From NCBI GenBank assembly GCA_017621415.1, contig JAGATD010000033.1:83311-147310 (forward strand): a DNA stretch of 64,000 nt, written 5' to 3'. This document shows, one piece after another, positions 2,233 through 64,000 of the stretch; the stretch's first letter is position 1, and each line of letters opens with the position of its first letter. Both the position numbers and the translations under genes were made by a program. The stretch is from Clostridia bacterium (GTDB lineage: Bacteria > Bacillota > Clostridia > Oscillospirales > CAG-272). The notes under the pieces are model-generated. The model did no database searches and was not told the DNA's origin. It saw nothing but the letters and a program-made list of their open reading frames with translations.

Positions 2233-2298
2233 TATCTTATGCAAAAAATCGACAACAGAAACTTCAACAAAAACACAAATATTGAAAGGAAAAGAAAA

Positions 2299-7237: not shown

Positions 7238-7660
7238 GTGAACATTCTACGCTTTATGGTTCCGAAAAGTTTGGTTGAATACCTGACGGAGGACCTTACT
7301 TTCAGGCAGGCGCTTGAAAAAATGAGATATCACAGATATGCCGCAATTCCTGTTCTCGACAGCGAGGGCAGATATGTCGGAACTCTTCGCAACGATGACG
7401 TATTGCGATTTATCTTGGAGCTTTCGGAATTCAGTCCCAAGGCGGCAGAGAAAATTTCGCTCTCCTCGCTTATGGATTCCAAGAGTGTAAAGCCTGTTTA
7501 TCATAATGCTTCAATGCAGGAGCTTATCGAACAGATAAAGGAGCACAATTTTGTTCCGGTTGTTGATGATAGGGGCTGTTTTATCGGCATTATACTTAGG
7601 CGGGACGTTTTAAATTATTTGTTGGACTTTTATAACGAAAATGACGGGGGTAACCAATAA
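7238..7660 (+). CDS. CBS-pair protein, CbpB/YkuL-like
   Basis: 140 aa, two CBS motifs (HRYAAIPVLDSEGRYVGTL; HNFVPVVDDRGCFIGIILRRDVL). GTG start preceded by GAGGT. Confidence 0.7.
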   Translation: MNILRFMVPKSLVEYLTEDLTFRQALEKMRYHRYAAIPVLDSEGRYVGTLRNDDVLRFILELSEFSPKAAEKISLSSLMDSKSVKPVYHNASMQELIEQIKEHNFVPVVDDRGCFIGIILRRDVLNYLLDFYNENDGGNQ

Positions 7661-45326: not shown

Positions 45327-45351
45327 TTTATCGGTACGAGGATTTTTGAAG

Positions 45352-46725
45352 ATGAAAAACGAAAAATATTATAAGGCTCTTGCCGACAAGGTTGGCGGTG
45401 AGCAGGGAATAAAAATAGCCGAGGCTATAAGAGATATGTACACTCTCTACAAGCCCGAAATGATAGACTGGTTTGCGAACCTTTACGACCCGGCAGTTGG
45501 CGGATATTATTATTCTAACGGCGCAAGAGATAACGAAAAAATTCACTACCAGGGTGTCAGCTACGACCTGCGCCCCGATACCGAGTCTACCGAGCAGGCT
45601 CTGAGGTTTATCAGCACCTCGGGTCTTCTCGGAGACGGAACGCTAAAGGAAAAGCTCCCCGCCTGGATGCAGGAGCAGATAGTAAGGTATATTAAAGGGC
45701 TACAGGACCCTAACGGATTTTTCTATAATCCCCAGTGGCCTAAGGAGCTTACCGACTCAAAGCTTTCAAGAAGAGCCAGGGACCTTAGCTGGTGCGTGTC
45801 TATTCTTGAAAACCTAGGCTCAGCGCCCACATACGATACCCCAACAGGGGTAAAGGGCGACGGACTTGACATAGACGGCAAACCCATTAAAGTCATTGGT
45901 GAAAGCTCCTGCACCGAGAGGGAAGAGGGGCCTAAAAGCTCGGTTGCGATACCAAAAGAGCTTGAAAACAAGGAAAGCTTCATTAATTATTTAAATTCCC
46001 TCGACATAAAGCACGAGTCCTACTCGGTAGGTAATACGCTGACAGCAATTGCAGGGCAGATAATTTACAGAGACAGGGAGCTTGAAGCTGCGGGAGCTGA
46101 CTATTCGCTCAGAAAGATTGTTATCGACTGGCTTAACGAAAACCAAAATCCCGAAAACGGACTCTGGCACGAGACCGCAAACTATTACGGAGTAAACGGT
46201 CTTATGAAAACCAGCGGAGTTTACGGCAAGATAGGGGTGCTGATGCCCCATGCCGACAAAGCGGTGAAATCCGCCATAGATGCTATAAGCACAGACCAGA
46301 CTCCCGGAGCTGTAACCGATATTTACAATACTTGGTTTGCGGTTACAAGAATTAAGCGACATTTGCGTACCTACGGCGGCGACGAGGGGCAGAGAATGGC
46401 AGATAAAATAGTCGAGGACCTAATAAAAATGGCTCCCGAGGCTATAAGAATTACCAAAGAAAAGCTTTCGGTATTCGCTAAGCCCTACGGCTCATTCTCT
46501 TACACTCCTATGGCATCGGCAGGCAGGTCACAGGGAATGCCTGTTACCTTTAGAGGCGCCTATGAGGGCGACGTTAACGCAACCATAATCTGCTCATCTG
46601 ATATTCTCGGATATATGTATTCTGCACTTGAATTGTCTGATGTGAGAGTTCCTATATATTCTCCCTTGGACTTCGTAAGATACATTGAAATTCTTGAGAA
46701 AAACAGGGCTAAAATTATTGGTTAA
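45352..46725 (+). CDS. alpha/alpha-toroid-like repeat protein, no signal peptide (paralogue of 779..2032 and of the toroid domain of 40086..45326)
   Basis: Collinear similarity to the lipoprotein toroid region over the whole length (WFANLYDPAVGG(Y/F)YYSN, STEQALRF, NGLWH.E.NYY.VNGLMK.SGVY, GAVTDIYNTWFAV, GSFSYTPM, EGDVNAT(I/V)ICSSD(I/V)LGY). Confidence 0.8.
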   Translation: MKNEKYYKALADKVGGEQGIKIAEAIRDMYTLYKPEMIDWFANLYDPAVGGYYYSNGARDNEKIHYQGVSYDLRPDTESTEQALRFISTSGLLGDGTLKEKLPAWMQEQIVRYIKGLQDPNGFFYNPQWPKELTDSKLSRRARDLSWCVSILENLGSAPTYDTPTGVKGDGLDIDGKPIKVIGESSCTEREEGPKSSVAIPKELENKESFINYLNSLDIKHESYSVGNTLTAIAGQIIYRDRELEAAGADYSLRKIVIDWLNENQNPENGLWHETANYYGVNGLMKTSGVYGKIGVLMPHADKAVKSAIDAISTDQTPGAVTDIYNTWFAVTRIKRHLRTYGGDEGQRMADKIVEDLIKMAPEAIRITKEKLSVFAKPYGSFSYTPMASAGRSQGMPVTFRGAYEGDVNATIICSSDILGYMYSALELSDVRVPIYSPLDFVRYIEILEKNRAKIIG

Positions 46726-46906: not shown

Positions 46907-46953
46907 AATTTGTAAAAACAAAATTTTCAAAAATATGAAAGGTGAAAAAAACT

Positions 46954-49146
46954 ATGAAAAACACAAACCATTCCCGCATTCTTATTTTAGCTCTCTCGCT
47001 TGTAATTCTCGTAGGCGCTATGGTTGGCTTCTCCTCAAGCGCTGAGGACACAGAATATACGAACGAGATCGTATCTATGAACATCGCATACGGCGACACA
47101 GTTCAGGTTCTTATTGCTCTTGACGCTCCCATAGACAACCAGGATGGTATTACTGTTAAGTATATCGACCCTAATGGTGACGAGCAGACCGCAACCTATT
47201 GGAAGACAATGGACGTTAAGGGTACCAATCGCCCTGTATGGTACACTAAGGGCATATCCGCAAAGGACCTTGGTCAGGATGTTGTTGCTACCGTTTATGT
47301 TGACGGTGAGGCTATCAGCACCGCAAATGTTAGCGTTGGACATTACCTTTACACAAAGCTTTACAAGGAAGGTTTTATCAACGCAACCGAAGAAACAGAC
47401 CTTCACAAGAAGGAGCTTTACCAGAACCTTCTTACCTATGCGGCATCTGCTGAGACTGTTCTTTGGAATGATAAGGCAGAGAATGCATCTAACCAGAGAG
47501 TTCTTATTACCGATAAGCTTTACGTTTATGCGGTTGATGGCACTGTTGACGCAGACAAGAAGCTGACAGAGGACGTGCTTACAAAGTCCGAAACTGTAAC
47601 TCTTAACTATACCGGCACCGCTCCAGAGGGATATGAGTTTACAGGAATTTGGCTTTCTTCTATCGACGGTACATCGGTAATAAAGGATGGCGTTGCTACA
47701 ATGCCTACCGTTCACGGTGTTTACGAGCCTATATTCGACTCTGTGACCCATACCGTCGGCAAGTATTATTCCAGCGAAACCGAGGGCACAAGATACGACT
47801 TTGATACAAAACTCAATCTTTCCGGTGACGATCAGACAGACCTCTCGGTTTATAATGCTGAAACCAATCCTACAGGCATTCTTGCAAACGAGCTTGGTGC
47901 AGATGCAACAGCCAGCCTTGTTTCCGATAAGCTTTCTACTCTTGACAACTCTACAGGCGAACTTGTATTTAATATGACCTCCACCGACTGGACCGGCTTC
48001 AATCTTGCTAACAAAAGTGACACAGAAGGTGCTACGGGCTCAAAGTATATCGCGGAGTTTGACTTTACCTACATTGATTCCGCAGCTTACACAGGCTCAG
48101 GCAGCTCCAATCAAGTTGCATTCTACATAGGACCCACATCTTATAACGAGAACGACAAGTATATGCACTCTATAACTCACGCAAAGTTTGAGGCAGACCG
48201 TGAGGTAATGATGTTCGGTAACGTTCCTGTGGTAAAGGGCAGAACCTATACTATTCGAATCGAAACCACCGTTGACGGTAGCTATGCTCTTTACGTTAAC
48301 GACGTTCTCGCTGCCGATAAGCCTGGTTATTACACCAATGAAGCTGAAATTCCTGCAGATTATGATGAAACAATCTATGCAGGCTTTGGATTCACTGTTC
48401 GTCAAAGACACGCAGGCGATAGCTTCTCGTTCTCTGTTGATAACTTCTATATGGGTACTATCGACTCATATTATGATGATAAGACGGTAGCAGGTGACAG
48501 ATACGACTTTACCGATAGCTTTGATGTTTCGGTATATGATGCGGAATCCAATTCCACAGGTCTTCTTGCAGGAACTCTTACAAACGATGATGTTGATGCT
48601 CTTCAGACTAAAAAAACTCTGTCGCTTACCAACACCGACAGTCGTCTTCTGGTTGATATGACAACAAGAGAATGGGCAGGATTTACTATTGCAAACAGAG
48701 AAGCAGTTACTGCATATGAAGGCTCTGTTCATATTGCCGAGTTTGACTTCACCTACATTTCTAACACTGCATATACCGGCACAAGCAAACCAGACTATAA
48801 TGCATTTGCTTTTGGTATCTCCAGTAGTGGAGGTGCTCTTAACAGTATGATCTGTTACAACTATGTGGACCACAAGGATGATACTTTTGGAGGATCTCTT
48901 GCATATAATACTGCAGTATTCGAGATGAACAAGACCTACAGGATAAGAATTGAGAGCACTGTTGGCGGTGACGAGCTTATCTACGTTGATAACGTTCTCG
49001 TTTCTAAAAACGCAAGTGCCAAAGGTAAATCGAACGATCCTTACATCTACGCAGGTCTTGGATTCTACTTCCGTGACAGACACGCAGGAGATGCTTTGTC
49101 ATTCTCTATCGACAATCTGTTTATGACAACTCTTGATCCTAAGTAA
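46954..49146 (+). CDS. secreted protein with an N-terminal beta-rich region and two LamG-like jelly-roll modules
   Basis: Start at ATG 46954 (AAAGGTG RBS). Signal peptide MKNTNHSRILILALSLVILVGAMVGFSSSA. Modules GTRYDF...KGRTYTIRIETTVDG..LYVNDVL...FSVDNFYMG and GDRYDF...NKTYRIRIESTVGG..IYVDNVL...FSIDNLFMT. Confidence 0.85.
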   Translation: MKNTNHSRILILALSLVILVGAMVGFSSSAEDTEYTNEIVSMNIAYGDTVQVLIALDAPIDNQDGITVKYIDPNGDEQTATYWKTMDVKGTNRPVWYTKGISAKDLGQDVVATVYVDGEAISTANVSVGHYLYTKLYKEGFINATEETDLHKKELYQNLLTYAASAETVLWNDKAENASNQRVLITDKLYVYAVDGTVDADKKLTEDVLTKSETVTLNYTGTAPEGYEFTGIWLSSIDGTSVIKDGVATMPTVHGVYEPIFDSVTHTVGKYYSSETEGTRYDFDTKLNLSGDDQTDLSVYNAETNPTGILANELGADATASLVSDKLSTLDNSTGELVFNMTSTDWTGFNLANKSDTEGATGSKYIAEFDFTYIDSAAYTGSGSSNQVAFYIGPTSYNENDKYMHSITHAKFEADREVMMFGNVPVVKGRTYTIRIETTVDGSYALYVNDVLAADKPGYYTNEAEIPADYDETIYAGFGFTVRQRHAGDSFSFSVDNFYMGTIDSYYDDKTVAGDRYDFTDSFDVSVYDAESNSTGLLAGTLTNDDVDALQTKKTLSLTNTDSRLLVDMTTREWAGFTIANREAVTAYEGSVHIAEFDFTYISNTAYTGTSKPDYNAFAFGISSSGGALNSMICYNYVDHKDDTFGGSLAYNTAVFEMNKTYRIRIESTVGGDELIYVDNVLVSKNASAKGKSNDPYIYAGLGFYFRDRHAGDALSFSIDNLFMTTLDPK

Positions 49147-49581: not shown

Positions 49582-49754
49582 TGATATATCTCTAACGAGA
49601 TATGATATACAGCTTTGCCGTATGATATATTTTCACTTCGTGAAAACATGATATAATATCCGTTCCTGAATATGCCGCAGGCATATATCATCGCTCGTAG
49701 AGCGATATCATACCAAAGGAATATCACCCGTTCCGCAGAGGAACGGATATCATT
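49582..49754. repeat. array of eight (A)TGATAT(A) motifs, four forward then four reverse, interleaved with short tetraloop-type hairpins
   Basis: ATGATATA at 49582, 49603, 49623 and 49649. Reverse complement (T/G)ATATCAT at 49685, 49705 and 49747, plus a partial AATATCAC at 49721. Hairpins: ATATCTC-TAAC-GAGATAT, TTTTCAC-TTCG-TGAAAA, ATATGCC-GCA-GGCATAT, CGCTC-GTA-GAGCG, CCGTTCC-GCAGA-GGAACGG. Confidence 0.7.
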
Positions 49755-49801
49755 GAGGCGCACTCCGTAAGGACGTGCGCCTCGAAAGAAGGGCTTTTTT
49801 A

Positions 49802-50626
49802 TTACATCTTCATCAGATAATCGTATGTAGCTTTTACAAGCTTTGTTTTTTGGTGCAGGACCTCTCGGGGGCAGTTCTTTGAGTCGCCGGGGATTTCATA
49901 GTTAAACATCCCCTCGTAATTTATCTCTCTCAGACCGTCAATAAAGTCCTGCCAGTCAATATTTCCACGGCTGAACGGGAGAATATGCTGGTCCTCACCG
50001 CCGTCGTTATCGTGAACGTGCAGAGCTTTTATAAGGCTTCCTCCCTTTACGAGAAATTCCTTTTGAGAGGAGGTTTTTGTCCTGTTAAGGTGGCCTGTAT
50101 CAAGGCAAATTGCAAATTTCGGTGAGCCAACTCTCTTGATTAGCTCGAGAATAGGGTCAATTCCCACAGGAGCGCCGCCGCCAAGGTTTTCAAGACAGAT
50201 GTACATATCAATATGCGCCGTACGTCTTGCAACCTCCTTAAGAGCAACAACATTTTTTTCAAATATGTCCTCGTCGGTCACATCAACCCCGCGCATATAG
50301 TCGCAGTGTAGAACAGAGCACTTAATGCCGATAGCCTCGTAGAGCTCTGCCTGGCGGACAATATAGTCAATAAAGCTTTCACCCTCGCAGACAATAAGAG
50401 AGGGAAAAGCCAAGTGACCCTGCGTTGCGGTAATGCCATGCTCAGCCATAAATTCTTTGAATTTTCTGCCGTTTTCTCTATAGTCTCCATCTCTTGCCAA
50501 AATGGCGCTGCCGTGCTCATGAGAAAGCTCAATATGAGTTACTCCGTCTTTTTCAAACTCGAGAATAGCCTCTTCGGGCTCCTCGGTGTTGTAATACTGT
50601 GACCATATACTAAATGGCGCGTTCAT
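49802..50626 (-). CDS. xylose-isomerase-like TIM-barrel protein (sugar phosphate isomerase/epimerase family)
   Basis: 274 aa; THIELS, CLENL, CLDTGH and HVHDN patterns typical of the AP_endonuc_2 fold. Confidence 0.75.
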   Translation of the reverse strand: MNAPFSIWSQYYNTEEPEEAILEFEKDGVTHIELSHEHGSAILARDGDYRENGRKFKEFMAEHGITATQGHLAFPSLIVCEGESFIDYIVRQAELYEAIGIKCSVLHCDYMRGVDVTDEDIFEKNVVALKEVARRTAHIDMYICLENLGGGAPVGIDPILELIKRVGSPKFAICLDTGHLNRTKTSSQKEFLVKGGSLIKALHVHDNDGGEDQHILPFSRGNIDWQDFIDGLREINYEGMFNYEIPGDSKNCPREVLHQKTKLVKATYDYLMKM

Positions 50627-52310: not shown

Positions 52311-52573
52311 TTTTAAATACCTCGTGTCTTTGTCCTCAATAAATTCAAGGAGAGTATATTGTTAATTATAGCACAAAAGACCTGCTTGGTCAAGATTATT
52401 TCATAAAATAAATAAAATATTTTAAATATTTTAAGCTGCGCTGTTAATTAAGCTTGAAACAATGCTAACAACTAATAAAATGGGTTAAGAATTGATAAGC
52501 TAAATTGGCAAATAATCTTGAAAAATGAAAAGAATTGTTTGCAAAATACCTGCAAATTGCGTTTTTTAGGAAA

Positions 52574-52612
52574 TAAAAAATTCGAAGAGAAAAAATCTCT
52601 TCGAATTTTTTG
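52574..52612. terminator. bidirectional terminator ending the T-box-controlled two-gene operon
   Basis: AATTCGAAGAGA-AAAAA-TCTCTTCGAATT flanked by A- and T-runs. Confidence 0.75.
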
Positions 52613-52642
52613 TATGTGATTTGCAGGCTGAAGCTCTGCGAG

Positions 52643-55156
52643 TTAAGATTTTGCCGGTCCTGCGGTGTCGGAGCCGTCTCCGACCAGTCCGAGGCGCTTT
52701 GCGGCATCCTCTCTCATCTTATATTTAAGAACCTTTCCCGCAGCATTCATAGGGAAGCTGTTAACAAATTCAATGTACTTCGGAACCTTATGACGCGCCA
52801 TACTTGCCTTAATGTAGTCGGACATTTCCTCAACGGTAACGCTACCCGGCTCTTTAAGGATAATGCAAGCCATAATTTCCTCACCGTATTTTTTATCGGG
52901 AACACCGATAACCTGTACGTCCTTTGTCTGAGGGTGAGTATAGATGAACTCCTCAATTTCTTTAGGATAAATATTTTCGCCTCCGCGGATTATCATATCC
53001 TTAAGACGTCCTGTAATGCGGTAGTTGCCATCCTCGTCACGGGATGCAAGGTCGCCCGAGTGAAGCCAGCCGTCCTCGTCTATTGTGCCCTTTGTTGCCA
53101 TAGGCATTTTGTAATAGCCTTTCATCTGGTTGTAGCCCTTGGCGCAGAACTCACCGTTAACACCGGGTCCAACCTCTTCGCCTGTTTCGGGGTCTACTAT
53201 CTTGCAGCGAACGTGCGGGAATGCGTATCCAACCGTTTCGGTACGCACCTCAAGTGAGTCAGTCCAGGAGCTCATTGTGTTTCCGGGAGCGCATTCGGTC
53301 TGACCGTAAACGCTGACAATACCTGTCATATTCATTTCATCGGGCCTTGCGGCTCTGCGCATAAGCTCAGGGGGACAGCCCGCACCTGCCATAATACCTG
53401 TTCTCATATGGGAGAAGTCGGTAGAACGGTAGCTTGGGTGGTTAAACATTGCGATAAACATCGTGGGAACGCCGTTAAAGCAGGTGATTTTTTCCTGATT
53501 TATACAAGCGAGAGATGATTTTGCGGAGAAGTATGGCATAGGACACATGGTAGTTCCGTGGGTCATTGATGATGTCATAGACAGTGTCATTCCGAAGCAG
53601 TGGAACATAGGCACCTGAATCATCATTCTGTCAGCGGTGGAAAGACCCATGCGGTCGCCTATACACTTGCCGTTATTTACAACATTGTAGTGAGTAAGCA
53701 TAACTCCCTTAGGGAAGCCTGTTGTTCCTGAGGTGTATTGCATGTTACATACATCGCTTGGGCGTACCGCCGCTGCCATTTTAGCAACCTGCTCGGAGCT
53801 TACAAGCTTGTATCTTGCCATAGCCTCGTCAAAGGTGAGAGAGCCGGGCTGCTTGAAGCCTACTGTAATAACATTTCTGAGGAATGGCAGCTTCTTTGAA
53901 TGAAGAGGCTCGCCGGGAACGGTGTCTTTTATTTCGGGACAGAGTGTGTTTATAATTTCCTTGTAGTTTGAGTCAAGGCAGCTGTCAATCATAACCAGTG
54001 TATGGGTATCAGACTGACGGAGCAGGTACTCGGCCTCGTGAATCTTATATGCGGTGTTAACTGTGACAAGAACTGCACCGAGCTTTACGGTAGCCCAGAA
54101 TGTGATATACCACGCGGGAAGGTTTGTTGCCCATATTGCAACCTTAGAGCCCGCCTTTACACCAAGAGAAACAAGAGCTCTTGCAAAGCGGTCAACGTCC
54201 TCACGGAACTCGGCATAGGTTCTTGTGTAATCAAGTGTTGTGTACTTAAAGCAGTACTGGTCAGGGAACTCGTCGGCAACTCTGTCAAGCACCTGTGAAA
54301 ATGTAAGGTCGATAAGCTCGTCTTTTTTCCACACATACTGGCCTGTGCCGTCATGGTTGAAGTAGAGTTTCTTTTTCATATCCCTTGTTGAATGGAAGCG
54401 GGACATGTAGTTTACAAAATGAGGGAAAATAATTTCGGGGTCAGAGAGCTCGTCGAGCCACTCGGGCTTCCACTCAAGAGAGATAAAGTTATCGTAGTTT
54501 ACCGAGGAAAGAGCGCGCATAACGTCGTCAATAGGCATACTGCCCTCGCCGATAAGCTGATATGTTCCCTCATCGTCAGAGTCTCTTAAGTGAACATGGC
54601 GCACATAGCAGCCAAGGTTTTTTATTGTATCATCACCCGACTCACCGTTGTCTCTGTATGGGTGATGAACGTCCCAAAGAACCGCAAGATTGTCGCTTGC
54701 AAAACGGTCAAGCATATCTCTAAGTCTTGCTGTGTTTGAATAAATTCCGCTTGTTTTTACAAGAATTGTAACATCCGAGGCTTCAGCATAAGGTAAAAGC
54801 TCGGTGAGCACCGAATATACAGTATCCTCATTGTCATTAAGCGCGCATACAACAACATAGGGCACACGGCTGTCGCTTGCAGTATTTATAAGAGACTTTA
54901 CGGTATCCTTTACAGATGGGTCTTTGGAGATGTCGCAGGATGTGTCAAAGCAGGGAATAGTGAGCTGCTTTTCGCGAAGAGTGCGCACTGTTGCAGCAGT
55001 ATTATACTTGTGGAAAGGACCTCCGCGGTCGGTAAGAGCATTAAAGCTTTGAAGATTATAAACCTCTATGCCGGAAAAACCCATTTCCTGCGCTGTTTCC
55101 AGCATTTCATCAAAGGACAGCCCCGGCCAGCCTCTTGTGGAAAAGGAGAGCTTCAT
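52643..55156 (-). CDS. fusion protein: N-terminal xylose-isomerase-like TIM barrel (~270 aa) + C-terminal AMP-forming acyl-CoA synthetase/ligase (~560 aa)
   Basis: N-terminus: MKLSFSTRGW...GFSGIEVY...HVHLRD...SLEW. C-terminus: AMP-binding motif YTSGTTGFPKGV, GYGQTE-like VYGQTE, WLHSGDL, GRLKDMIIRGGENIYPKEIE. ATGA overlap with the upstream gene. Confidence 0.85.
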   Translation of the reverse strand: MKLSFSTRGWPGLSFDEMLETAQEMGFSGIEVYNLQSFNALTDRGGPFHKYNTAATVRTLREKQLTIPCFDTSCDISKDPSVKDTVKSLINTASDSRVPYVVVCALNDNEDTVYSVLTELLPYAEASDVTILVKTSGIYSNTARLRDMLDRFASDNLAVLWDVHHPYRDNGESGDDTIKNLGCYVRHVHLRDSDDEGTYQLIGEGSMPIDDVMRALSSVNYDNFISLEWKPEWLDELSDPEIIFPHFVNYMSRFHSTRDMKKKLYFNHDGTGQYVWKKDELIDLTFSQVLDRVADEFPDQYCFKYTTLDYTRTYAEFREDVDRFARALVSLGVKAGSKVAIWATNLPAWYITFWATVKLGAVLVTVNTAYKIHEAEYLLRQSDTHTLVMIDSCLDSNYKEIINTLCPEIKDTVPGEPLHSKKLPFLRNVITVGFKQPGSLTFDEAMARYKLVSSEQVAKMAAAVRPSDVCNMQYTSGTTGFPKGVMLTHYNVVNNGKCIGDRMGLSTADRMMIQVPMFHCFGMTLSMTSSMTHGTTMCPMPYFSAKSSLACINQEKITCFNGVPTMFIAMFNHPSYRSTDFSHMRTGIMAGAGCPPELMRRAARPDEMNMTGIVSVYGQTECAPGNTMSSWTDSLEVRTETVGYAFPHVRCKIVDPETGEEVGPGVNGEFCAKGYNQMKGYYKMPMATKGTIDEDGWLHSGDLASRDEDGNYRITGRLKDMIIRGGENIYPKEIEEFIYTHPQTKDVQVIGVPDKKYGEEIMACIILKEPGSVTVEEMSDYIKASMARHKVPKYIEFVNSFPMNAAGKVLKYKMREDAAKRLGLVGDGSDTAGPAKS

Positions 55157-56556
55157 TCTACTTCCTCCTCGTAAATTATTTTGTTAAGTGCACTGAGATA
55201 CGCCTGTATACCAGCGCCTACAATGTCGGTGGATATTCCTCTTCCGGAATACACCTTTGCGCCCGAGCGGAGCTTGACAATGGTCTGTCCCATAGCCTCG
55301 CGACCTTCGGTTACTGCCTGGAGCTGGAAGTCATCAAGCTCGTAGTGGCAGCCGGTGATTTTTTCAATAGCCTGGAATGCGGCATCGATAGAGCCGTCTC
55401 CGATATACACACCCTCGGTGGGCATGCCGTTTTTCAAGAGCTTGATATGAGCGGTGGCGGAAATGGTATTTCCGGATGTAATAACATAGGTGTCAAGCTT
55501 GTATGTAGGCGGAACCTGCATGGCAGATGACGCAACTATTGCATCAAGCTCCTTTAAGCCAACCTTTTCCTTTTTCTCTGCAATTTGCATGAATGCGTTA
55601 TATACCTTAACACTGTCCTCCTCAGAGAGGTCATAGCCAAGCCTCTGGACCGCAAGAGTCACTGCGGCTATGTCATCGTGAGAGGTAAGATAAATGTCGG
55701 ATTCCTCGCTTTGTGTGGCTGCGACTGCATTTTTCTTTCCGGGATGGCACATCCAGTTTATCTGGTCAATTATTCTGCTGAGCTGAGTTGTTTTAACCCC
55801 GCTGAATGCATCAAGAGTATCCGACTTTGCCGCAAGTATACGCGCAATATTCGCAACAGATGCCGCATCAATGGGATATGCCGCAGCTCTTATCTGCTCA
55901 GCTCCTGCGGATGCTGCGGCAATTGCGCAGGCATCTGCCATAGAAATCGCATCAGAGCAGCAAACACCGAGGCATACTTTTTTTAGCTCGGGAAGATTTT
56001 CATATTGGAGCTTAATGAATGCCGCAAATTCATCAGGAAGCATAGCGCTTGCCGTATCGCAAACTGTAACAGTTGTCGCTCCCGCATCAATTGCCGTTTT
56101 TAATGCCAATGTAAGGAAGGATTGCTCGCTCCTTGTTGCGTCGCCTGCAATAAATTCAACATCGGGGCAGAGAGATGCGCACTTTGCGACAGATGTTTTT
56201 ATAGCCTCTATCATCGCATCGGGCTTCTTGTGGAACAGATATTCAATCTGCACGGCGCTTGTAGGCGCAAACACCTGAAGCCTCGGCTTTTTAGCAGTCT
56301 TTAAAGCTGCCCATGTAGCCTCAATGCTTTCATTATTTAATTCTACGGGAACGGCAACGGCGCTGTCGGCAACGGCCGCTGCAATAGACTTTATACGAAG
56401 GGAGTCAATACGGGCGTTGCTTATTCCCTCAAGCTCAATCACGTCAACTCCGAGCTTGTCAAGCAGCTTCGAAAATTCTATCTTTTCTTTAAATGATAGG
56501 TTAAAGTTTTCGGATATCTGCTTCATTGTTGCATCGCTGATTTTGATTTGTTTCAT
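55153..56556 (-). CDS. 2-isopropylmalate-synthase-like protein with degenerate catalytic motifs but an intact LeuA C-terminal regulatory domain
   Basis: Collinear with LeuA (PRLQVFAPTS, DVEFIAGDATRSE, DAGATTV.VCDT; C-terminal Y.L....TSG......A.I.L..NG....GV..G.GSIDAAF.AI..I). TLRDGEQ is replaced by ATMKQIS and HxH(D/N)D by CCSDA. Start at ATG 56556 behind AAGGAG. Confidence 0.8.
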   Translation of the reverse strand: MKQIKISDATMKQISENFNLSFKEKIEFSKLLDKLGVDVIELEGISNARIDSLRIKSIAAAVADSAVAVPVELNNESIEATWAALKTAKKPRLQVFAPTSAVQIEYLFHKKPDAMIEAIKTSVAKCASLCPDVEFIAGDATRSEQSFLTLALKTAIDAGATTVTVCDTASAMLPDEFAAFIKLQYENLPELKKVCLGVCCSDAISMADACAIAAASAGAEQIRAAAYPIDAASVANIARILAAKSDTLDAFSGVKTTQLSRIIDQINWMCHPGKKNAVAATQSEESDIYLTSHDDIAAVTLAVQRLGYDLSEEDSVKVYNAFMQIAEKKEKVGLKELDAIVASSAMQVPPTYKLDTYVITSGNTISATAHIKLLKNGMPTEGVYIGDGSIDAAFQAIEKITGCHYELDDFQLQAVTEGREAMGQTIVKLRSGAKVYSGRGISTDIVGAGIQAYLSALNKIIYEEEVE

Positions 56557-56605: not shown

Positions 56606-56880
56606 CAAAAAAACAAAAATCCCTGAGGCTGCCAAACGCAGCTTCAGGGACGAAAATACATTTCGCGGTACCACCCTGATTATCCCCCAAAAAGGGAAAT
56701 CTCTCAACCTCAAACAAGGTATTGCCCTGTAACGGTGGCATCCGTGTCTCATTACTCGCGTATCGCTTTGACAAGACCGACTCGGGAAGAAGAATGCCCA
56801 ACCCATCCGTATCGGCTTACACCAACCGCCGACTCTCTGCAACATCCGAAAAGGGCAAGATTTCCGTCACTGTCTTTAAG
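56606..56880 (-). promoter_or_regulatory. T-box leader (tRNA-sensing riboswitch) with terminator/antiterminator
   Basis: On the - strand: K-turn GACAGUGACGGAA, AGAGAG box, distal GGUUGGUGUAAGCC, F-box CCGUUA, T-box AAUCAGGGUGGUACCGCG. Terminator CCCUGAAGCUGC-GUUU-GGCAGCCUCAGGG followed by AUUUUUGUUUUUUU. Confidence 0.9.
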
Positions 56881-56932: not shown

Positions 56933-57028
56933 GAGAAAATTTGAAAAAATGAACATATTTGTCATTTGTGTCAAAAAAGGATTTAAGCTTTCAGCATAAT
57001 TTTGGATATTTTAACAACAAAAAAATGT

Positions 57029-57057
57029 TTGACATTTGAAAAAAGATGTGGTACAAT
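57029..57057 (+). promoter_or_regulatory. promoter for the + strand T-box operon
   Basis: TTGACA (57029-57034), 17 bp, TGgTACAAT extended -10 (57052-57057). Confidence 0.6.
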
Positions 57058-57065
57058 AAACTCAT

Positions 57066-57316
57066 AAAAACTGTGACGAAGACGGTACGGTGAAAAAGTT
57101 CTCAGAGAATCGGCGGTTGGTGTGAGCCGATAGCTTGTAGCCTCAGTGCCTATCACTTCCGAGTTGGTGGTTCGAGCGATTATCGCCAGGGCTTACCCGT
57201 GCACCCGCGTTAAGGGATAGGGCTTGTTGGAGTCTGAAGCGGCGATCTATCGCAATTTGAGTGGTACCGCGGGTATATTTACTCGTCTCAAGAATTATTT
57301 CTTGAGATTTTTTTGT
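57066..57316 (+). promoter_or_regulatory. T-box leader (tRNA-sensing riboswitch) with terminator/antiterminator
   Basis: K-turn AACUGUGACGAAG, AGAGAA box, distal GGUUGGUGUGAGCC, F-box-like GCGUUAA, T-box AAUUUGAGUGGUACCGCG. Terminator UCUCAAG-(7 nt)-CUUGAGA followed by UUUUUUU. Confidence 0.9.
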
Positions 57317-57442
57317 TTTTATAGGACTTTTTAAGTCTGATTTATCCCTATTACTATTAAACTAGCGGTTTTGTGTTTCATTATAACTAATGAAATAATT
57401 CTATAATCCAAAAACCAAAAAAACGAACAGGAGGAAAAAGCT

Positions 57443-59710
57443 ATGACGAAACAAACCGAAACAAATCAACTTCAGAGGATAGCGCTTCGAATTCGCGAAA
57501 TGCGTCAGATTCTCGGTTTTACTACGGCGGAGATGGCAGAGAAAACAGATCTCACAGAAGAGACCTATCTCTCATACGAGTCGGGCACAGTTGATTTACC
57601 ATTTACATTTATGCACAAGTGTGCGAAGGTGTGCGGCATAGAGATTACCGATATTCTTGAGGGACACAGCGCAAAGCTGTCGGGATATACAATCACCCGC
57701 AAGGGCGAGGGACTCACTACTGCCAGCGAGGACGGCATCACCATTCAGGATATGGCGCCTCTCTTCCGTCAGAAGCTTGCAACCCCATATTGGGTTACAT
57801 ATAAATATTCCGAGGAGCTTCAGAGCCAGCCTATAAGCACGGTTACTCACGCAGGTCAGGAGTTTGACCTTGTATTAAAGGGTGCTATGCGTATCCGTGT
57901 TGGCGAGAAGGAAGAGGTTCTTCGCGAGGGCGACAGCATCTTCTATAAATCCTCAACACCCCACGGTATGATTGCTGTTGAGGGTGAGGATTGCGTATTC
58001 CTTGCAATGGTTATGGCAAGCGATACAACCGATACTCCTATGTATATCGGAAACGGTGACTACAAGGTGTCTGAGAGACCTCTTCTTTGTGAGAAGTTTG
58101 TTAAGCCTGTTGAGGACGAGAACGGAGTTCTTGTTGATATTAATTATGAGAATGAAGAAAAGTATAACTTTGCCTTTGATACAGTTGACGAAATAGCCCG
58201 TAAGTATCCCGATAAGCTGGCTATGCTCCATATTTCTAACGATATGACAGAGCGCCGCTTTACATTTAAGGATATGAAAGATGCCTCCTCACAGAGCGCA
58301 AACTACTTTAAGTCCCTGGGAATCAAGCGCGGCGACAGAGTTATGCTGGTGCTTAAGAGACATTACCAGTTCTGGTTTGCTATTCTCGGTCTTCATAAGC
58401 TTGGCGCTATTGCTATTCCCGCAACAAATCAGCTGGTAGAGCATGACTTTACCTATCGCTTCAAGGCGGCAGGAGTAAGCGCAATTCTCTGTACTGCAGA
58501 CGGTGATACCGCGCATCAGGCAGAGCTTGCAGAGGCAGCCAGCGGTCTTTCGCTTACCAAAATTATGGTTGGCGGAGAGAGAGAGGGCTGGCACAACTAC
58601 GACCGTGAGTTTGTTCTCTTCAGCCGTAGATATGTGCGTGAGGCTGATGCTCCCTGCGGAAGCGACCCTATGCTTATGCTGTTTACTTCGGGAACAACAG
58701 GCTATCCCAAGATGGCTATGCATTCATATAAGTATGCTCTCGGTCATTACGTAACCGCAAAATACTGGCACCTTTGCCGACCCGACGGATTACACTTTAC
58801 CATTTCCGAAACAGGATGGGGTAAGGCGCTTTGGGGTAAGCTTTACGGTCAATGGCTCTGCGAGGGCGCGGTATTTACCTACGACTTTGACAGATTTGAT
58901 TCGGCAAAGATTCTTCCTATGTTTGCCAAGTATAAAATCACCACATTCTGCGCGCCTCCCACAATGTACAGGATGCTTATCAAGCAGGATTTAAGTCAGT
59001 ATGACCTCTCCTCTATCCGCCACGCAACTACTGCGGGTGAGGCGCTTAACCCCGAGGTGTTCTATCAGTTTGAAAAGTCCACAGGGCTTCGTATCGCTGA
59101 GGGCTTCGGTCAGACCGAGATGACTCTCGGTATCGGAAACCTGCTTGGCACACAGCTTAAGCCCGGCGCTATGGGTAAGCCTATCCCCGGATATGGCATA
59201 GACCTTGTTGATACAGACGGAAATCCGGTTGCCGACGGTGTAAACGGTGAAATAGTTATCCGTACCGAGCCTAAAACCGCCTGCGGCGTATTCCTCGGTT
59301 ATTATCTCAACCAAGAGGCGACCGACAATGTATGGCATGACGGTATGTACCATACAGGCGACCTCGCTTGGCGCGATGAGGACGGATATTACTGGTATGT
59401 GGGACGCGCCGATGACGTTATCAAGTCTTCGGGCTACCGTATCGGTCCGTTCGAGATAGAGTCTACAATTATGGAGCTTCCTTATGTTCTTGAGTGCGGT
59501 GTTTGCGCAGCTCCCGACGAGGTTAGAGGTCAGGTTGTTAAGGCGTGCATCGTGCTTGTTAACGGAACAGAGGGCACAGAGGAGCTGAAAAAGGAAATTC
59601 AGAATTACGTAAAGCTTCATACAGCCCCCTACAAGTATCCCAGAATTGTAGAATTCCGCAAAGAACTGCCTAAAACAATAAGCGGTAAAATAATGAGAAA
59701 TAAGCTGTAA
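57443..59710 (+). CDS. fusion protein: XRE-type HTH + cupin domain (~190 aa) + medium-chain-type AMP-forming acyl-CoA synthetase
   Basis: HTH IREMRQILGFTTAEMAEKTDLTEETYLSYESG; cupin HAGQEFDLVLKG..R..VG......GDSIFY.S..PHGM. AMP-binding FTSGTTGYPK, GFGQTE, YHTGDLA, GRADDVIKSSGYRIGPFEIES and a C-terminal SGKI.R. Confidence 0.85.
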   Translation: MTKQTETNQLQRIALRIREMRQILGFTTAEMAEKTDLTEETYLSYESGTVDLPFTFMHKCAKVCGIEITDILEGHSAKLSGYTITRKGEGLTTASEDGITIQDMAPLFRQKLATPYWVTYKYSEELQSQPISTVTHAGQEFDLVLKGAMRIRVGEKEEVLREGDSIFYKSSTPHGMIAVEGEDCVFLAMVMASDTTDTPMYIGNGDYKVSERPLLCEKFVKPVEDENGVLVDINYENEEKYNFAFDTVDEIARKYPDKLAMLHISNDMTERRFTFKDMKDASSQSANYFKSLGIKRGDRVMLVLKRHYQFWFAILGLHKLGAIAIPATNQLVEHDFTYRFKAAGVSAILCTADGDTAHQAELAEAASGLSLTKIMVGGEREGWHNYDREFVLFSRRYVREADAPCGSDPMLMLFTSGTTGYPKMAMHSYKYALGHYVTAKYWHLCRPDGLHFTISETGWGKALWGKLYGQWLCEGAVFTYDFDRFDSAKILPMFAKYKITTFCAPPTMYRMLIKQDLSQYDLSSIRHATTAGEALNPEVFYQFEKSTGLRIAEGFGQTEMTLGIGNLLGTQLKPGAMGKPIPGYGIDLVDTDGNPVADGVNGEIVIRTEPKTACGVFLGYYLNQEATDNVWHDGMYHTGDLAWRDEDGYYWYVGRADDVIKSSGYRIGPFEIESTIMELPYVLECGVCAAPDEVRGQVVKACIVLVNGTEGTEELKKEIQNYVKLHTAPYKYPRIVEFRKELPKTISGKIMRNKL

Positions 59711-59757
59711 TTTTCAGCATAATTTATTGAACCAAAAGTGAAATTTATCAAAAAGTA

Positions 59758-59787
59758 TTGACAAGACCCGACAAGGTTATGTATAAT
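59758..59787 (+). promoter_or_regulatory. near-consensus sigma-A promoter in front of the second synthetase paralogue
   Basis: TTGACA (59758-59763), 18 bp, TATAAT (59782-59787). Confidence 0.6.
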
Positions 59788-59859
59788 ATAATTTGATAAA
59801 TTTTACTTTTAATAGATTTTTCTATCAAAAGACAGTAAACTTTGTAAAAGAGGTACGAT

Positions 59860-62145
59860 GTGGAACCGATTTTGAACGAAATGGAAAACAAAATAAAGCA
59901 AATAGCAAATCGTATAAAGGAGCTTCGTCTTATCACAGGTCTTTCTGTCCAGGAAATGGCTACTCGCACAGGTACTACTGTCGAGGAATACGAACAGTGC
60001 GAGGCAGGTAACCGCAACTTAAGCATTGCATTCCTTTATCACTGTACATTAAGCTTCGGCGTTGATATGGGAGATATCCTTGAGGGTAAAAGCCCCAAGC
60101 TCCGCTCGTATGCGCTTACACGCAAAGGCGACGGTCAGAAAATAGAGGAAGCTCATCATATGATAGGCTATAACCTTGCTTCCGGCTTCCGCAACCGTAT
60201 TGCATTGCCGCTTTATATGGAACTTGGATATCGCGAGGGCTCGGAAAATCAGCCTATTGATCTTGTAACTCACGAGGGTCAGGAATGTGATATCGTGATT
60301 AAGGGTCAAATGAAAATTCAGATTGGCGACCACTCTGAGATACTGAATCCCGGCGATTGTATTTATTATGACTCCGGCACACCCCACGGTATGATTGCCG
60401 TAAACGGCGAGGATTGTACATTCTATGCTATCGTGCTCCGCAACCAGGCGGCAAGAGAGGGTGAGCAGGTAGCTGAAATGTCGGCTGCCACCAAGCGCCT
60501 TGAGGAGGATTCAAAGCGCCGTGTATATCACGACTTTATTATTCCAACCGAAGAAAACGGTGTTCTTAAGAAGATTGAATTCAAGAATGAAGAGAAGTTC
60601 AACTTTGCCTTTGATGTTGTTGATGCTCTTGGCAGACGCAAGCCCGAGAAGCTTGCTATGCTTCACGTAAGCGAGGACGGAACTGAAAGGCGCTTTACAT
60701 TCCGCGATATGAAAAAGGAGTCGGCAAGAGCTGCCAACTACTTTAAATCTCTGGGTATCAAGCGCGGTGATAGGGTAATGCTTGTTTTGAAGCGCCACTA
60801 TCAGTTCTGGTTTGCTATTCTTGGTTTACATAAGCTTGGTGCGGTTGCTATTCCCGCACCCAACCAGCTTCTAGAAAAGGACTTTAAATACCGCTTTGAG
60901 GCAGGTAAGGTAAAGGCTATACTCTGCACCTCTGACGGTGAGGTTGCCGATGCGGTAGATAAGGCAGCTGCTCAATGCCCCGGACTTGAATACAAGATAA
61001 TTGTGGGTAAGGACAGAGAGGGCTGGCATAACTTCAATGAGGAGTATGCTATCTTCAGCAGCCATTATGCCCGCACAGAGGATGCGCCCTGCGGCAGCGA
61101 CCCGATGCTGATGTACTTTACCTCGGGAACCAGCGGCTATCCCAAAATTGCGGCTCATAACTATAAATATCCTCTCGGTCACTTTATAACCGCTAAGTAT
61201 TGGCACCAGGTTAATCCCGAGGGACTTCACTTCACAATTTCCGATACAGGCTGGGCAAAGGCTATGTGGGGTAAGCTTTACGGCCAGTGGCTCTGTGAGG
61301 CGGCAAACTTTGTTTACGACTTTGACAGATTTGATGCCGAGAAGATACTTCCTCAGTTTGCAAAGCATAAGATTACTACATTCTGCGCACCTCCCACAAT
61401 GTACAGAATGCTGATAAAGCAGGATCTTTCAAGGTTTGACCTCTCTTCAATAGAGCATGCATCGACTGCGGGCGAGGCGCTTAACCCTGAGGTATTCCGC
61501 CAGTTTGAAAAGCACACAGGTCTTAAGATTATGGAGGGCTTCGGCCAGTCCGAGAGTACACTTATTATCGGTAATCTTGCGGGCGGCAGCCACAAGATAG
61601 GCTCTATGGGTAAGCCTGTTCCTCTTTACGACGTTCATCTTCTTAACCCCGACGGTGAGGAGGTTCAGAGAGGTGAAAGCGGTGAGATATGCATAAATAT
61701 CTCGAACGGACTTCCTTGCGGTCTTGCATATGCATATGAGGCAAACGAGGAGGTTACCCGCGAGACCTGGCGTGAGGGATATTATCACACAGGCGACGTT
61801 GCTTGGATGGATGAGGACGGATTCCTCTGGTATGTCGGACGCGCTGATGACGTTATTAAGTCCTCGGGCTACAGAATAGGTCCGTTTGAGATTGAGAACG
61901 TAATTATGGAGCTTCCTTATGTTCTTGAGTGCGGCGTTTCTGCCGCTCCCGATGAAATAAGAGGCCAGGTAGTTAAGGCAAGCATAGTTCTCGTTAGTGG
62001 TACCGAGGGAACAGACGAGCTGAAAAAAGAAATTCAGAATTACGTTAAGTCCCGTACCGCGCCTTACAAGTACCCAAGAATTGTGGAATTCCGTGAGAGT
62101 CTTCCTAAGACCACCAGCGGAAAGATTATAAGAAAACAACTTTAA
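59860..62145 (+). CDS. second HTH-cupin::acyl-CoA synthetase fusion (tandem paralogue of 57443..59710)
   Basis: Same architecture with long identical stretches (ANYFKSLGIKRGDRVMLVLKRHYQFWFAILGLHKLGA; ITTFCAPPTMYRMLIKQDLS; GRADDVIKSSGYRIGPFEIE). GTG at 59860 behind AGAGGT; alternative ATG at 59881. Confidence 0.85.
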   Translation: MEPILNEMENKIKQIANRIKELRLITGLSVQEMATRTGTTVEEYEQCEAGNRNLSIAFLYHCTLSFGVDMGDILEGKSPKLRSYALTRKGDGQKIEEAHHMIGYNLASGFRNRIALPLYMELGYREGSENQPIDLVTHEGQECDIVIKGQMKIQIGDHSEILNPGDCIYYDSGTPHGMIAVNGEDCTFYAIVLRNQAAREGEQVAEMSAATKRLEEDSKRRVYHDFIIPTEENGVLKKIEFKNEEKFNFAFDVVDALGRRKPEKLAMLHVSEDGTERRFTFRDMKKESARAANYFKSLGIKRGDRVMLVLKRHYQFWFAILGLHKLGAVAIPAPNQLLEKDFKYRFEAGKVKAILCTSDGEVADAVDKAAAQCPGLEYKIIVGKDREGWHNFNEEYAIFSSHYARTEDAPCGSDPMLMYFTSGTSGYPKIAAHNYKYPLGHFITAKYWHQVNPEGLHFTISDTGWAKAMWGKLYGQWLCEAANFVYDFDRFDAEKILPQFAKHKITTFCAPPTMYRMLIKQDLSRFDLSSIEHASTAGEALNPEVFRQFEKHTGLKIMEGFGQSESTLIIGNLAGGSHKIGSMGKPVPLYDVHLLNPDGEEVQRGESGEICINISNGLPCGLAYAYEANEEVTRETWREGYYHTGDVAWMDEDGFLWYVGRADDVIKSSGYRIGPFEIENVIMELPYVLECGVSAAPDEIRGQVVKASIVLVSGTEGTDELKKEIQNYVKSRTAPYKYPRIVEFRESLPKTTSGKIIRKQL

Positions 62146-62195
62146 TACATAAAGCGCCGTCTGCCCGATATAGGGTAGACGGAAAGAGAAATACT

Positions 62196-62864
62196 ATGGA
62201 TTCTAAAAGATTAACTCTCTTTGCAGGGCACTATGGCAGCGGCAAAACCAACATTGCTGTAAACTATGCTTTACATCTTGCAGAGAAAGGGAAGAAAGTC
62301 TGTATTGCCGATCTGGATATTGTTAATCCGTATTTCAGAACGAAGGACAGCGAGAGGGAACTCAAGGAAGCCGGAATTGAGCTGGTTTCTCCAAAGTATG
62401 CTAACAGCAACGTGGACCTGCCTGCGCTGCCTGCCGAGAGCTACCGTCTTGTTCAGGATAAGTCTGTGTACGGTATAATGGATATCGGCGGCGATGACAG
62501 AGGCGCTTATGCGCTGGGTAGGTTTGCTGATTTTATAAAGGCAGAGGATGATTACCGTTTTGTCTTTGTGGTAAATTGCTTCCGGCCGCTTACCTCTACT
62601 GTTGATGACGCGATAGAAATCATGCGCGAAATTGAGAAGGCGGCGGGACTTGAGTTTACCTGTATAGTAAATAATTCCAATATTGGAAAAGAGACAACGA
62701 CAGAGCTGTTTTTGACAACGCTCGACTTTGTCCAAGACTTAAGCGAAAAAACAGGGCTTCCGATATGGATGCATACTGCGGAGCGCTCTGTTGCGGAGGG
62801 ACTTTCGGGTCTTACCGTTCTGCCTATGACGCTTCAAAAGAAATATTTTGACCTGCCCGACTGA
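62196..62864 (+). CDS. P-loop NTPase of the MinD/ParA/CooC-like (SIMIBI) type
   Basis: N-terminal Walker A GHYGSGKTNIA, DLDIVNPYF and MDIGGDD (Walker B-like); 222 aa. Confidence 0.7.
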   Translation: MDSKRLTLFAGHYGSGKTNIAVNYALHLAEKGKKVCIADLDIVNPYFRTKDSERELKEAGIELVSPKYANSNVDLPALPAESYRLVQDKSVYGIMDIGGDDRGAYALGRFADFIKAEDDYRFVFVVNCFRPLTSTVDDAIEIMREIEKAAGLEFTCIVNNSNIGKETTTELFLTTLDFVQDLSEKTGLPIWMHTAERSVAEGLSGLTVLPMTLQKKYFDLPD

Positions 62865-62905
62865 TAGCGGTTATATGGCAGGCTTGATTATAAGGAGGAA
62901 TATAA

Positions 62906-63112
62906 ATGGCAAAGGTAACTTTTAATACCGATATGTGTAAGGGCTGCGGTCTTTGTGTTGATGCGTGCCCTAAAAAATGTCTTGCGATTGCAGACGACAA
63001 GCTTAACCAAAAGGGCTACTCTCCCGCTTATATGAAAGAGCAGGAGAAGTGTATTGGATGCGCATTCTGTGCAACAATGTGCCCCGATTGTATAATTACT
63101 GTTGAAAAGTAA
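62906..63112 (+). CDS. 2x[4Fe-4S] ferredoxin-type delta subunit of a 2-oxoacid:ferredoxin oxidoreductase
   Basis: CKGCGLCVDACP and CIGCAFCATMCP motifs; 68 aa; immediately upstream of the alpha subunit. Confidence 0.85.
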   Translation: MAKVTFNTDMCKGCGLCVDACPKKCLAIADDKLNQKGYSPAYMKEQEKCIGCAFCATMCPDCIITVEK

Positions 63113-63127
63113 GGAAAGGAGACTGTT

Positions 63128-64000
63128 ATGGCAGAAAGAATTTTAATGAAAGGCAACGAGGCTATTGCTGAAGCTGCGATAAGAGCAGGTTGCCGTCACT
63201 ATTTTGGTTATCCTATCACTCCCCAGACTGAGATTGCCGCTTATATGGCAAAGAAAATGCCTAAGATTGGCGGAGTATTTCTTCAGGCAGAGAGCGAAAT
63301 TGCATCTATAAACATGGTATATGGCGCAGCTGCGGCAGGTATGCGTGTTATGACATCATCCTCCAGCCCCGGAGTTTCACTTAAGGCTGAGGGTCTTAGC
63401 TACATAGCCGGCTCTGATGTTCCCGCGCTTGTTGTTAACGTACAGAGAGGCGGCCCCGGTCTCGGCGGTATTCAGCCCTCTCAGTCTGATTATTTCCAGG
63501 CTACAAAGGGCGGCGGACACGGTGATTACCGTATGATAGTTCTTGCTCCCGCATCGGTTCAGGAAATGGCAAGTCTTACTATCAAGGGCTTCGACCTTGC
63601 TGATAAATACTGCGTTACCTCTATGATCCTTGCCGACGGAACAATCGGTCAGATGATGGAGCCTATTACCTTTGAGGACACCGAGCCTAAGGTTTATGAC
63701 AAGCCCTGGGCGCTTACAGGTACTGAGGGAAAGCGTAAGCACAATGTTGTTAACTCACTTTACCTTAAGCCCGACGAGCTTGAAAAGAAGAATTTCGAGC
63801 GTTATGAAAAATACGCTGAGATAGAGAAGAACGAGGCTATGTGGGAGGAATATATGATGGACGATGCCGAATATTGCGTTGTAGCATTCGGTATTGCATC
63901 CCGTGTAGCGAAGAATGCGGTAGTAGCCGCAAGAGAAGAGGGAATTAAGGTAGGTCTTATCCGTCCTATCACCCTTTGGCCCTTCCCCACAGCTGCTTTT
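63128..64000 (+). CDS. vorB: 2-oxoacid:ferredoxin oxidoreductase alpha subunit, VorB-like (3' end outside the window)
   Basis: Not in the ORF track because there is no stop before the window end. My translation: MAERILMKGNEAIAEAAIRAGCRHYFGYPITPQTEI....FLQAESEIASINMVYGAAAAGMRVMTSSSSPG...VVNVQRGGPGLG. Confidence 0.8.
   Translation, partial: MAERILMKGNEAIAEAAIRAGCRHYFGYPITPQTEIAAYMAKKMPKIGGVFLQAESEIASINMVYGAAAAGMRVMTSSSSPGVSLKAEGLSYIAGSDVPALVVNVQRGGPGLGGIQPSQSDYFQATKGGGHGDYRMIVLAPASVQEMASLTIKGFDLADKYCVTSMILADGTIGQMMEPITFEDTEPKVYDKPWALTGTEGKRKHNVVNSLYLKPDELEKKNFERYEKYAEIEKNEAMWEEYMMDDAEYCVVAFGIASRVAKNAVVAAREEGIKVGLIRPITLWPFPTAAF

Follow-up and report, generated by a model that had tools for sequence, protein, structure and literature searches.

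The stretch analysed here (hereafter the window) comprises 64,000 nucleotides (nt) of contig JAGATD010000033.1 from a Clostridia bacterium (assembly GCA_017621415.1, positions 83,311-147,310, forward strand). It contains a locus of two divergent operons, each headed by a T-box leader predicted to respond to uncharged tRNA. The forward operon encodes two paralogous acyl-coenzyme A (CoA) synthetases that carry an N-terminal helix-turn-helix (HTH)-cupin module, a P-loop nucleoside triphosphatase (NTPase) and the subunits of a 2-oxoacid:ferredoxin oxidoreductase, while the reverse operon encodes a LeuA-like protein and a third acyl-CoA synthetase fused to a triosephosphate isomerase (TIM) barrel (Table 1). 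A sequence-only reading of the window had listed a T-box leader, synthetase 1, a promoter, synthetase 2, the P-loop protein, and the delta and alpha subunits in this order, and each listed element was found in its proposed place. It had also predicted that the beta and gamma genes would follow beyond position 64000; using a metagenome contig (L001) that is identical to the window across 11,805 overlapping bases to read past the window end, we found both directly after alpha. Because nusA, infB and F-type ATP synthase genes lie elsewhere in the window, we place the locus on the chromosome; no tRNA genes were found within the 64 kb.

Table 1 Features of the locus, in window coordinates unless contig L001 is named
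Feature	Position	Strand	Description
Third synthetase	52643..55156	-	Xylose-isomerase-like TIM barrel fused to FadD-like acyl-CoA synthetase
LeuA-like pseudoenzyme	55153..56556	-	HMGL-like barrel without RDGEQ and HxH motifs; LeuA_dimer intact
Leu T-box leader	56643..56879	-	Rfam RF00230, 112.4 bits; specifier CUU at 56792-56790
Promoter P1	57029..57057	+	TTGACA-17-TACAAT, TG-extended -10, sigma-70; serves the Ile T-box operon
Ile T-box leader	57064..57293	+	Rfam RF00230, 94.5 bits, E = 2e-19, model 1-219 of 219
T-box terminator hairpin and T run	57285..57315	+	Hairpin 57285-57308; 5′ arm overlaps antiterminator 3′ strand
Synthetase 1 (ACS1)	57443..59710	+	755 amino acids; HTH_3/HTH_19, Cupin_2, AMP-binding, AMP-binding_C (Pfam)
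Internal promoter P2	59758..59787	+	TTGACA-18-TATAAT, 12/12 consensus; for synthetase 2, P-loop gene, oxidoreductase
Synthetase 2 (ACS2)	59860..62145	+	761 amino acids; architecture as synthetase 1
P-loop NTPase	62196..62864	+	222 amino acids; weak ParA/CbiA Pfam matches; SIMIBI class
Delta subunit	62906..63112	+	68 amino acids; 2x[4Fe-4S] ferredoxin-like, CxxCxxCxxxCP twice
Alpha subunit (VorB type)	63128..64000 (window edge)	+	Window copy 482 bits against VorB
Beta subunit	On L001, past window end	+	TPP_enzyme_C, 250 amino acids
Gamma subunit	On L001, past window end	+	POR domain, 179 amino acids; then intrinsic terminator

A scan using one genome per species recovered 384 stretches with relatives of synthetase 1, and the best 80 of these, with 81-97% identity, were used for the detailed comparison of loci. 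All 80 carriers are uncultured metagenome-assembled genomes classified as Oscillospiraceae, 'Faecousia' or Eubacteriales, many of them labelled as originating from the colon, caecum or rectum of sheep, goat, yak, deer or buffalo. Among the matches listed, homologues of synthetase 1 and of the P-loop protein share 77-100% identity and carry uninformative names. The conserved order consists of the TIM-synthetase and LeuA-like genes on the reverse strand, followed on the forward strand by synthetase 1, synthetase 2, the P-loop gene, delta, alpha, beta and gamma; it is complete in 47 of the 80 loci, the remainder being interrupted by contig ends. This gene order is not due to chance, because it recurs in 80 species-level genomes and each of the 78 related intergenic regions examined contains the T-box core.

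The leader upstream of synthetase 1 starts seven bases downstream of promoter P1, which is kept in relatives as TTGACA...TGTGRTAnAAT, and it matches the RF00230 model along its full length with a score that exceeds the gathering score of 93 bits by a narrow margin. The T-box anticipated upstream of this gene is therefore present, and it includes the conserved T-box sequence AAUUUGAGUGGUACCGCGGG and an acceptor-binding UGGU bulge at 57262-57265; its antiterminator and terminator are predicted to be mutually exclusive. On the 3′ side of Stem I, which reads ...GUGCCU AUC A CUUC CGAG, the triplet AUC (57152-57154) is followed by A (57155) and then by the helix strand CUUC (57156-57159), which pairs with GAAG on the 5′ side. 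AUC is invariant in all 75 readable orthologous leaders, with varying preceding bases and either A or C as the next base. Given that AUC occupies the canonical specifier position and is invariant across these relatives, this first T-box is predicted to be isoleucine-specific, which resolves the candidate Ile/Leu specifier that had been set beforehand as a test. The UGGU bulge is common to the Ile, Leu and Val T-boxes of these loci; it matches the tRNA end ACCA and fits the A73 discriminator base of tRNA-Ile, tRNA-Leu and tRNA-Val.

Promoter P2, which had likewise been predicted between the two synthetase genes, has no T-box downstream of it in the window. We classed the spacer between synthetases 1 and 2 across 72 loci: in 13 it spans 10-96 nt and is promoter-free, in 42 (including the window) it spans ~100-180 nt and carries a conserved TTGACA-17/18-TATAAT promoter, and in the other 17 it spans 330-530 nt and carries a TTGACA/TATAAT promoter followed by a third T-box. 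The specifier of this third T-box is a valine codon throughout, namely GUC in 16 of the loci and GUG in the remaining one. These leaders match the full RF00230 model at 85-99 bits (E = 1e-17 to 1e-20); one of them, at 98.7 bits, reaches the gathering score, and three others score 85-91 bits (E = 1e-17 to 1e-18). They occur in loci L036, L041 (for example, at 12316-12561), L056, L059, L061, L062, L064, L067-L070, L072, L075, L077, L080, L083 and L084, and thus stand before synthetase 2, the P-loop gene and the oxidoreductase in 17 species. Since the window has P2 alone where these species have P2 together with the Val T-box, the comparison suggests that the Val riboswitch was gained or lost within the clade. 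In most loci with a Val T-box, 8-26 nt separate the synthetase 1 stop codon from the start of P2, too few to hold a terminator, so that all transcripts would pass the Val switch in these species.

No terminator lies downstream of synthetase 1 in the window, and only synthetase 1 is strictly behind the Ile T-box in this genome. The proposal that starvation sensing is coupled to both acid activation and carboxylation thus stands for synthetase 1, and has to be relaxed for synthetase 2 and the oxidoreductase, which have P2 as a promoter of their own.

The Leu T-box of the divergent operon outscores the Ile T-box (112.4 versus 94.5 bits). Across 70 relatives its specifier is CUU, CUC or CUG, a change that is synonymous only, and the following base varies; seven related loci lack this T-box. 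Two other readings of this specifier were rejected. Shifting it by one base yields the incoherent set UUC, UCC, UGA, UGC and UGG across species, and a serine reading, based on an invariant UCU one base upstream, would place the specifier two bases from the helix, unlike in the Ile and Val leaders, and would need a tRNA with G73, whereas the bulge is UGGU. The Leu T-box is predicted to drive both the LeuA-like gene and the TIM-synthetase gene. The LeuA-like protein scores 291 bits against the LeuA model, below the cut-off of 532; it has ATMKQ in place of TLRDGEQ and VCCSD in place of HCHDD, and the RDGEQ and HxH motifs are absent from all 75 of its orthologues; it retains only the fold and the leucine-binding LeuA_dimer domain. 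Judged from this loss of catalytic and metal-binding motifs, it cannot be a 2-isopropylmalate synthase, and it may instead be a leucine-binding partner. The third synthetase shares only 26% identity with synthetase 1, and a PDB search with it recovered generic FadD-like relatives only. Where the Leu operon ends, ahead of the next gene, an 18-bp perfect hairpin with A/T runs on both sides (52573-52613) looks like a bidirectional terminator.

Across the clade, each branched-chain amino acid appears to have its own T-box before its own synthetase: Ile is paired with synthetase 1, Val with synthetase 2 together with the P-loop protein and the oxidoreductase, and Leu with the third synthetase. Neither the Leu nor the Val T-box had figured in the sequence-only reading, and both follow the pattern set by the Ile T-box.

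We compared the synthetases with characterized enzymes. Synthetases 1 and 2 share 61% identity over their full length, and residues 238-752 of synthetase 1 match the M. acetivorans enzyme Macs (PDB 3ETC) at 602 bits (E = 1.6e-179), with the next structures at ~335 bits. The top NCBIfam model for both proteins is MbcS, at 427 bits for synthetase 1 and 421 bits for synthetase 2. Macs prefers 2-methylbutyrate and completes both reaction steps with it, Trp259 being critical; it can adenylate propionate, and with most non-preferred substrates the CoA step remains unfinished (PMC10455477). S. aureus MbcS, which has a role in fatty-acid priming, acts selectively on 2-methylbutyrate and isobutyrate and does poorly with isovalerate, and acetate and propionate are also poor substrates (PMC10026030). 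Both window synthetases keep the Trp of the AKYW motif, which we infer from the PDB chain numbering to be Macs Trp259, and both carry a Gly in FGQ(T/S)E at what would be the site occupied in acetate-specific enzymes by the pocket Trp. From the Ile and Val T-boxes, respectively, together with the preferences of these relatives, we propose that synthetase 1 is a 2-methylbutyrate-CoA ligase and that synthetase 2 is an isobutyrate-CoA ligase. The third synthetase is proposed from its Leu T-box alone to be an isovalerate-CoA ligase, and that a synthetase of another kind stands behind the Leu T-box fits the poor activity of MbcS on isovalerate.

The delta, alpha, beta and gamma subunits of the oxidoreductase are all encoded together. 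The full-length alpha subunit on L001 has 353 amino acids and scores 553 bits against the NCBIfam VorB model, above its cut-off of 399. Oxidoreductases of this type (2-oxoacid:ferredoxin) are reversible and often run oxidatively. Beyond the terminator that follows gamma, L001 13300-14392 holds a new promoter and then genes for a MaoC-like dehydratase and a nitroreductase; the genes beyond gamma are not conserved beside the locus in other species.

Taken together, the locus probably encodes a T-box-switched salvage of branched-chain amino acids in an uncultured Oscillospiraceae-type gut bacterium, in which exogenous branched short-chain acids would be turned into the 2-oxoacid precursors of Ile, Val and Leu. 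The evidence strongly favours a model of starvation-induced acid activation and reductive carboxylation, for which we infer the direction and the substrates. Transcription from P1 would enter the Ile T-box and by default terminate at 57285-57315. The anticodon of uncharged tRNA-Ile would pair with AUC and the acceptor end with UGGU, which would stabilize the antiterminator and let RNA polymerase read into synthetase 1. Polymerase would then run on into synthetase 2, the P-loop gene and the delta, alpha, beta and gamma genes, and, because no terminator follows synthetase 1, this read-through would add to downstream transcription. Synthetase 1 would convert 2-methylbutyrate, and synthetase 2 isobutyrate, to the CoA thioester at the cost of ATP to AMP, and the VorB-type oxidoreductase would reductively carboxylate both thioesters with reduced ferredoxin to 3-methyl-2-oxopentanoate and 2-oxoisovalerate. 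A transaminase encoded elsewhere would finish isoleucine and valine, and the third synthetase would handle isovalerate for leucine. The carboxylating direction is favoured because T-boxes induce upon starvation, because AMP-forming ligases commit the acids to thioesters, and because reductive carboxylation of 2-methylbutyrate to isoleucine is accepted for rumen organisms (PMC2812497).

Several points weigh against this model. Sequence alone does not establish the activities and substrates of the enzymes or the direction of the pathway. Both synthetases fall short of the MbcS equivalog cut-off of 850 bits and would accordingly be classed as relatives of MbcS, not as equivalogs, and the beta and gamma subunits match generic 2-oxoacid oxidoreductase models only, below equivalog cut-offs. 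Because the oxidoreductase can be transcribed from P2 without a T-box in this genome, isoleucine starvation does not strictly govern its expression. No transaminase or acid transporter genes are found in the locus, and the model leaves the HTH-cupin domains, the P-loop protein, the TIM barrel and the LeuA-like protein unexplained.

The same set of genes can also be read in other ways. One is that the synthetases scavenge branched acids, as does S. aureus MbcS, and that the resulting acyl-CoAs prime the synthesis of anteiso and iso membrane lipids, with the oxidoreductase running oxidatively as a second source of the same acyl-CoAs and the T-boxes being used since these primers normally derive from Ile, Val and Leu. 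We consider such a role unlikely. It is consistent with the fact that the best NCBIfam match of both synthetases is to MbcS, which is documented in fatty-acid priming (PMC10026030), and one acyl-CoA pool could supply both fates. However, an oxidative 2-oxoacid decarboxylase induced at amino-acid scarcity would waste precursor, no fab genes are found in or beside the conserved locus, and the fact that every synthetase has its own T-box for a particular amino acid suggests that amino-acid supply is what is being controlled. Alternatively, synthetase 1 could activate propionate, with the oxidoreductase carboxylating propionyl-CoA to 2-oxobutyrate, which the ordinary ilv pathway would then convert to isoleucine. 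Some anaerobes are known to use this route, and it would fit the Ile T-box equally well. Macs can indeed adenylate propionate, but it prefers 2-methylbutyrate and mostly does not carry out the CoA step with non-preferred substrates (PMC10455477), and propionate, like acetate, is a poor substrate for MbcS (PMC10026030). The companion T-boxes for Val and Leu also speak for each amino acid drawing on a branched acid of its own, and the alpha subunit fits the VorB subfamily; we regard a propionate route as quite improbable.

It is also conceivable that the locus is catabolic, with the oxidoreductase oxidizing branched 2-oxoacids as amino acids are fermented, and with the synthetases doing no more than recycling acids. 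The reversible and often oxidative operation of these oxidoreductases, which is textbook background, would allow this. Induction by uncharged tRNA, and thus when the amino acid is lacking, conflicts with such a function, three amino-acid-specific T-boxes would make no sense for catabolism, and fermenters conserve energy through phosphotransacylase and kinase or through ADP-forming synthetases, not through AMP-forming ligases; we therefore deem this explanation very improbable. The one-to-one pattern of Ile, Val and Leu is explained less simply by any of these three alternatives than by starvation-induced salvage.

The N-terminal extension of ~230 residues in synthetases 1 and 2 contains the HTH and cupin domains within residues 1 to ~195. 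Residues ~10-190 align along the whole length of PuuR-like HTH-cupin proteins of ~185 amino acids (positions 9-176 of 185 in the PuuR model, E = 2e-5 and 6e-6), at 24-26 bits compared with a family cut-off of 211 bits. The module also aligns weakly to the HTH-cupin enzyme HppE, and, as in HppE, the His-Glu-His triad of the cupin is invariant, here in both orthologues and paralogue. A search of 1.8 billion representatives recovered distant full-length fusions (35-43% identity) and many stand-alone HTH-cupin homologues of ~185 amino acids (31-38% identity). An AlphaFold2 model of the module, built from a shallow alignment, had a predicted local distance difference test (pLDDT) score of 53 and was excluded from the fold search. 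Given the weak PuuR match and the conserved triad, this module may serve in catalysis or ligand sensing and not bind DNA.

A tentative and rather doubtful joint reading is that the HTH-cupin-synthetases are BirA-like enzyme-regulators and that the LeuA-like protein binds leucine and acts on the third synthetase as a regulatory partner. Under this reading, the HTH domains would recognize operators at P2 and/or at a conserved box that lies between the two divergent promoters, with acid binding, adenylate formation or a ligand of the metal-type cupin governing the interaction. If true, the locus would combine two inputs as in an AND gate: supply, with the protein sensing that the acid is present, and demand, with the T-box sensing uncharged tRNA. 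The box in question (~56960-56990) resembles ATWTTTG-N~11-(T)GCACAAAA and occurs at the same position in many related loci. In some species it is a perfect TTGTGCACAA palindrome; it was spotted by eye in an AT-rich spacer and is a candidate operator.

The P-loop protein carries a classical GxxGxGKT Walker A motif, not the deviant MinD/ParA type, and has no CxxC motif. Its AlphaFold2 model (pLDDT 82) has signal recognition particle (SRP) GTPases and ATPase-type HypB as its nearest folds, with template modelling (TM) scores of ~0.55, and a fold search with this model recovered generic SIMIBI neighbours only and no close structural relative. The protein is labelled only 'hypothetical protein' publicly, and its gene invariably precedes that of the delta subunit. 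Our guess is that it is a maturation or assembly factor.

The components of the proposed pathway, namely T-boxes, branched-acid ligases, reversible oxidoreductases and reductive carboxylation, are all known. Labelling studies of the 1960s showed that isobutyrate, 2-methylbutyrate and isovalerate become Val, Ile and Leu in rumen and gut anaerobes, many of which need or use these acids; to our knowledge, the genes and control of this route in gut Firmicutes are largely unassigned. The proposed chemistry and the gut habitat match those of rumen bacteria and methanogens such as Methanobrevibacter ruminantium (PMC2812497), in which the pathway was defined by physiology and labelling, whereas for Oscillospiraceae we propose a conserved set of genes with a regulator. 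In its control, the locus resembles the T-box-regulated ilv/leu operons of Firmicutes, such as the Leu T-box of B. subtilis ilv-leu: both have a specifier, a UGGN bulge and competing terminator and antiterminator, and both use transcription attenuation by which uncharged tRNA raises the supply of the cognate branched-chain amino acid, although here this is predicted from sequence. Unlike in B. subtilis, the controlled genes encode acyl-CoA synthetases and a ferredoxin-dependent 2-oxoacid oxidoreductase instead of de novo ilv/leu enzymes, three T-boxes each front one synthetase, and the LeuA relative is catalytically dead.

The synthetases resemble Macs (3ETC) and MbcS in their catalytic region, in the Trp taken as Trp259 and in the Gly that replaces the acetate-type pocket Trp. 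They differ from both in their ~230-residue HTH-cupin module and in their placement behind T-boxes beside an oxidoreductase, and the lipid synthesis served by MbcS is unlike the role we propose here. Fusions of enzymes with HTH domains are known from BirA, PutA and NadR, of which BirA is likewise adenylate-forming with an N-terminal HTH. The module can be aligned over its full length with PuuR-type regulators, but the match is weak, and DNA binding by the window proteins is putative. In a literature search that did not extend to the main 2008 T-box survey, we found no report of a T-box with acyl-CoA synthetase or oxidoreductase genes.

If the proposed pathway is correct, it would add acid salvage to biosynthesis, transport and tRNA charging as functions under T-box control, and it would explain how cross-feeding of branched acids can be regulated. 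The specifier codons would act as built-in labels of the synthetases and yield a concrete, testable gene set, and the locus provides a marker with which amino-acid prototrophy can be annotated in metagenomes. Three uncharacterized types of protein come to light as well: the HTH-cupin-synthetase fusion, the LeuA pseudoenzyme and the oxidoreductase-linked P-loop NTPase.

Elsewhere in the window, four open reading frames (779-2032, 2239-3753, 45346-46725 and 46942-49146) had no Pfam match at E <= 1e-5, and two very long ones lie on the forward strand at 7660-13014 (1784 amino acids) and 40086-45326 (1746 amino acids). A Gut-1 RNA (RF01706; 54.9 bits, gathering score 50) is located at 49680-49755 on the reverse strand, just downstream of a gene for a stand-alone xylose-isomerase-like TIM barrel (49802-50626).

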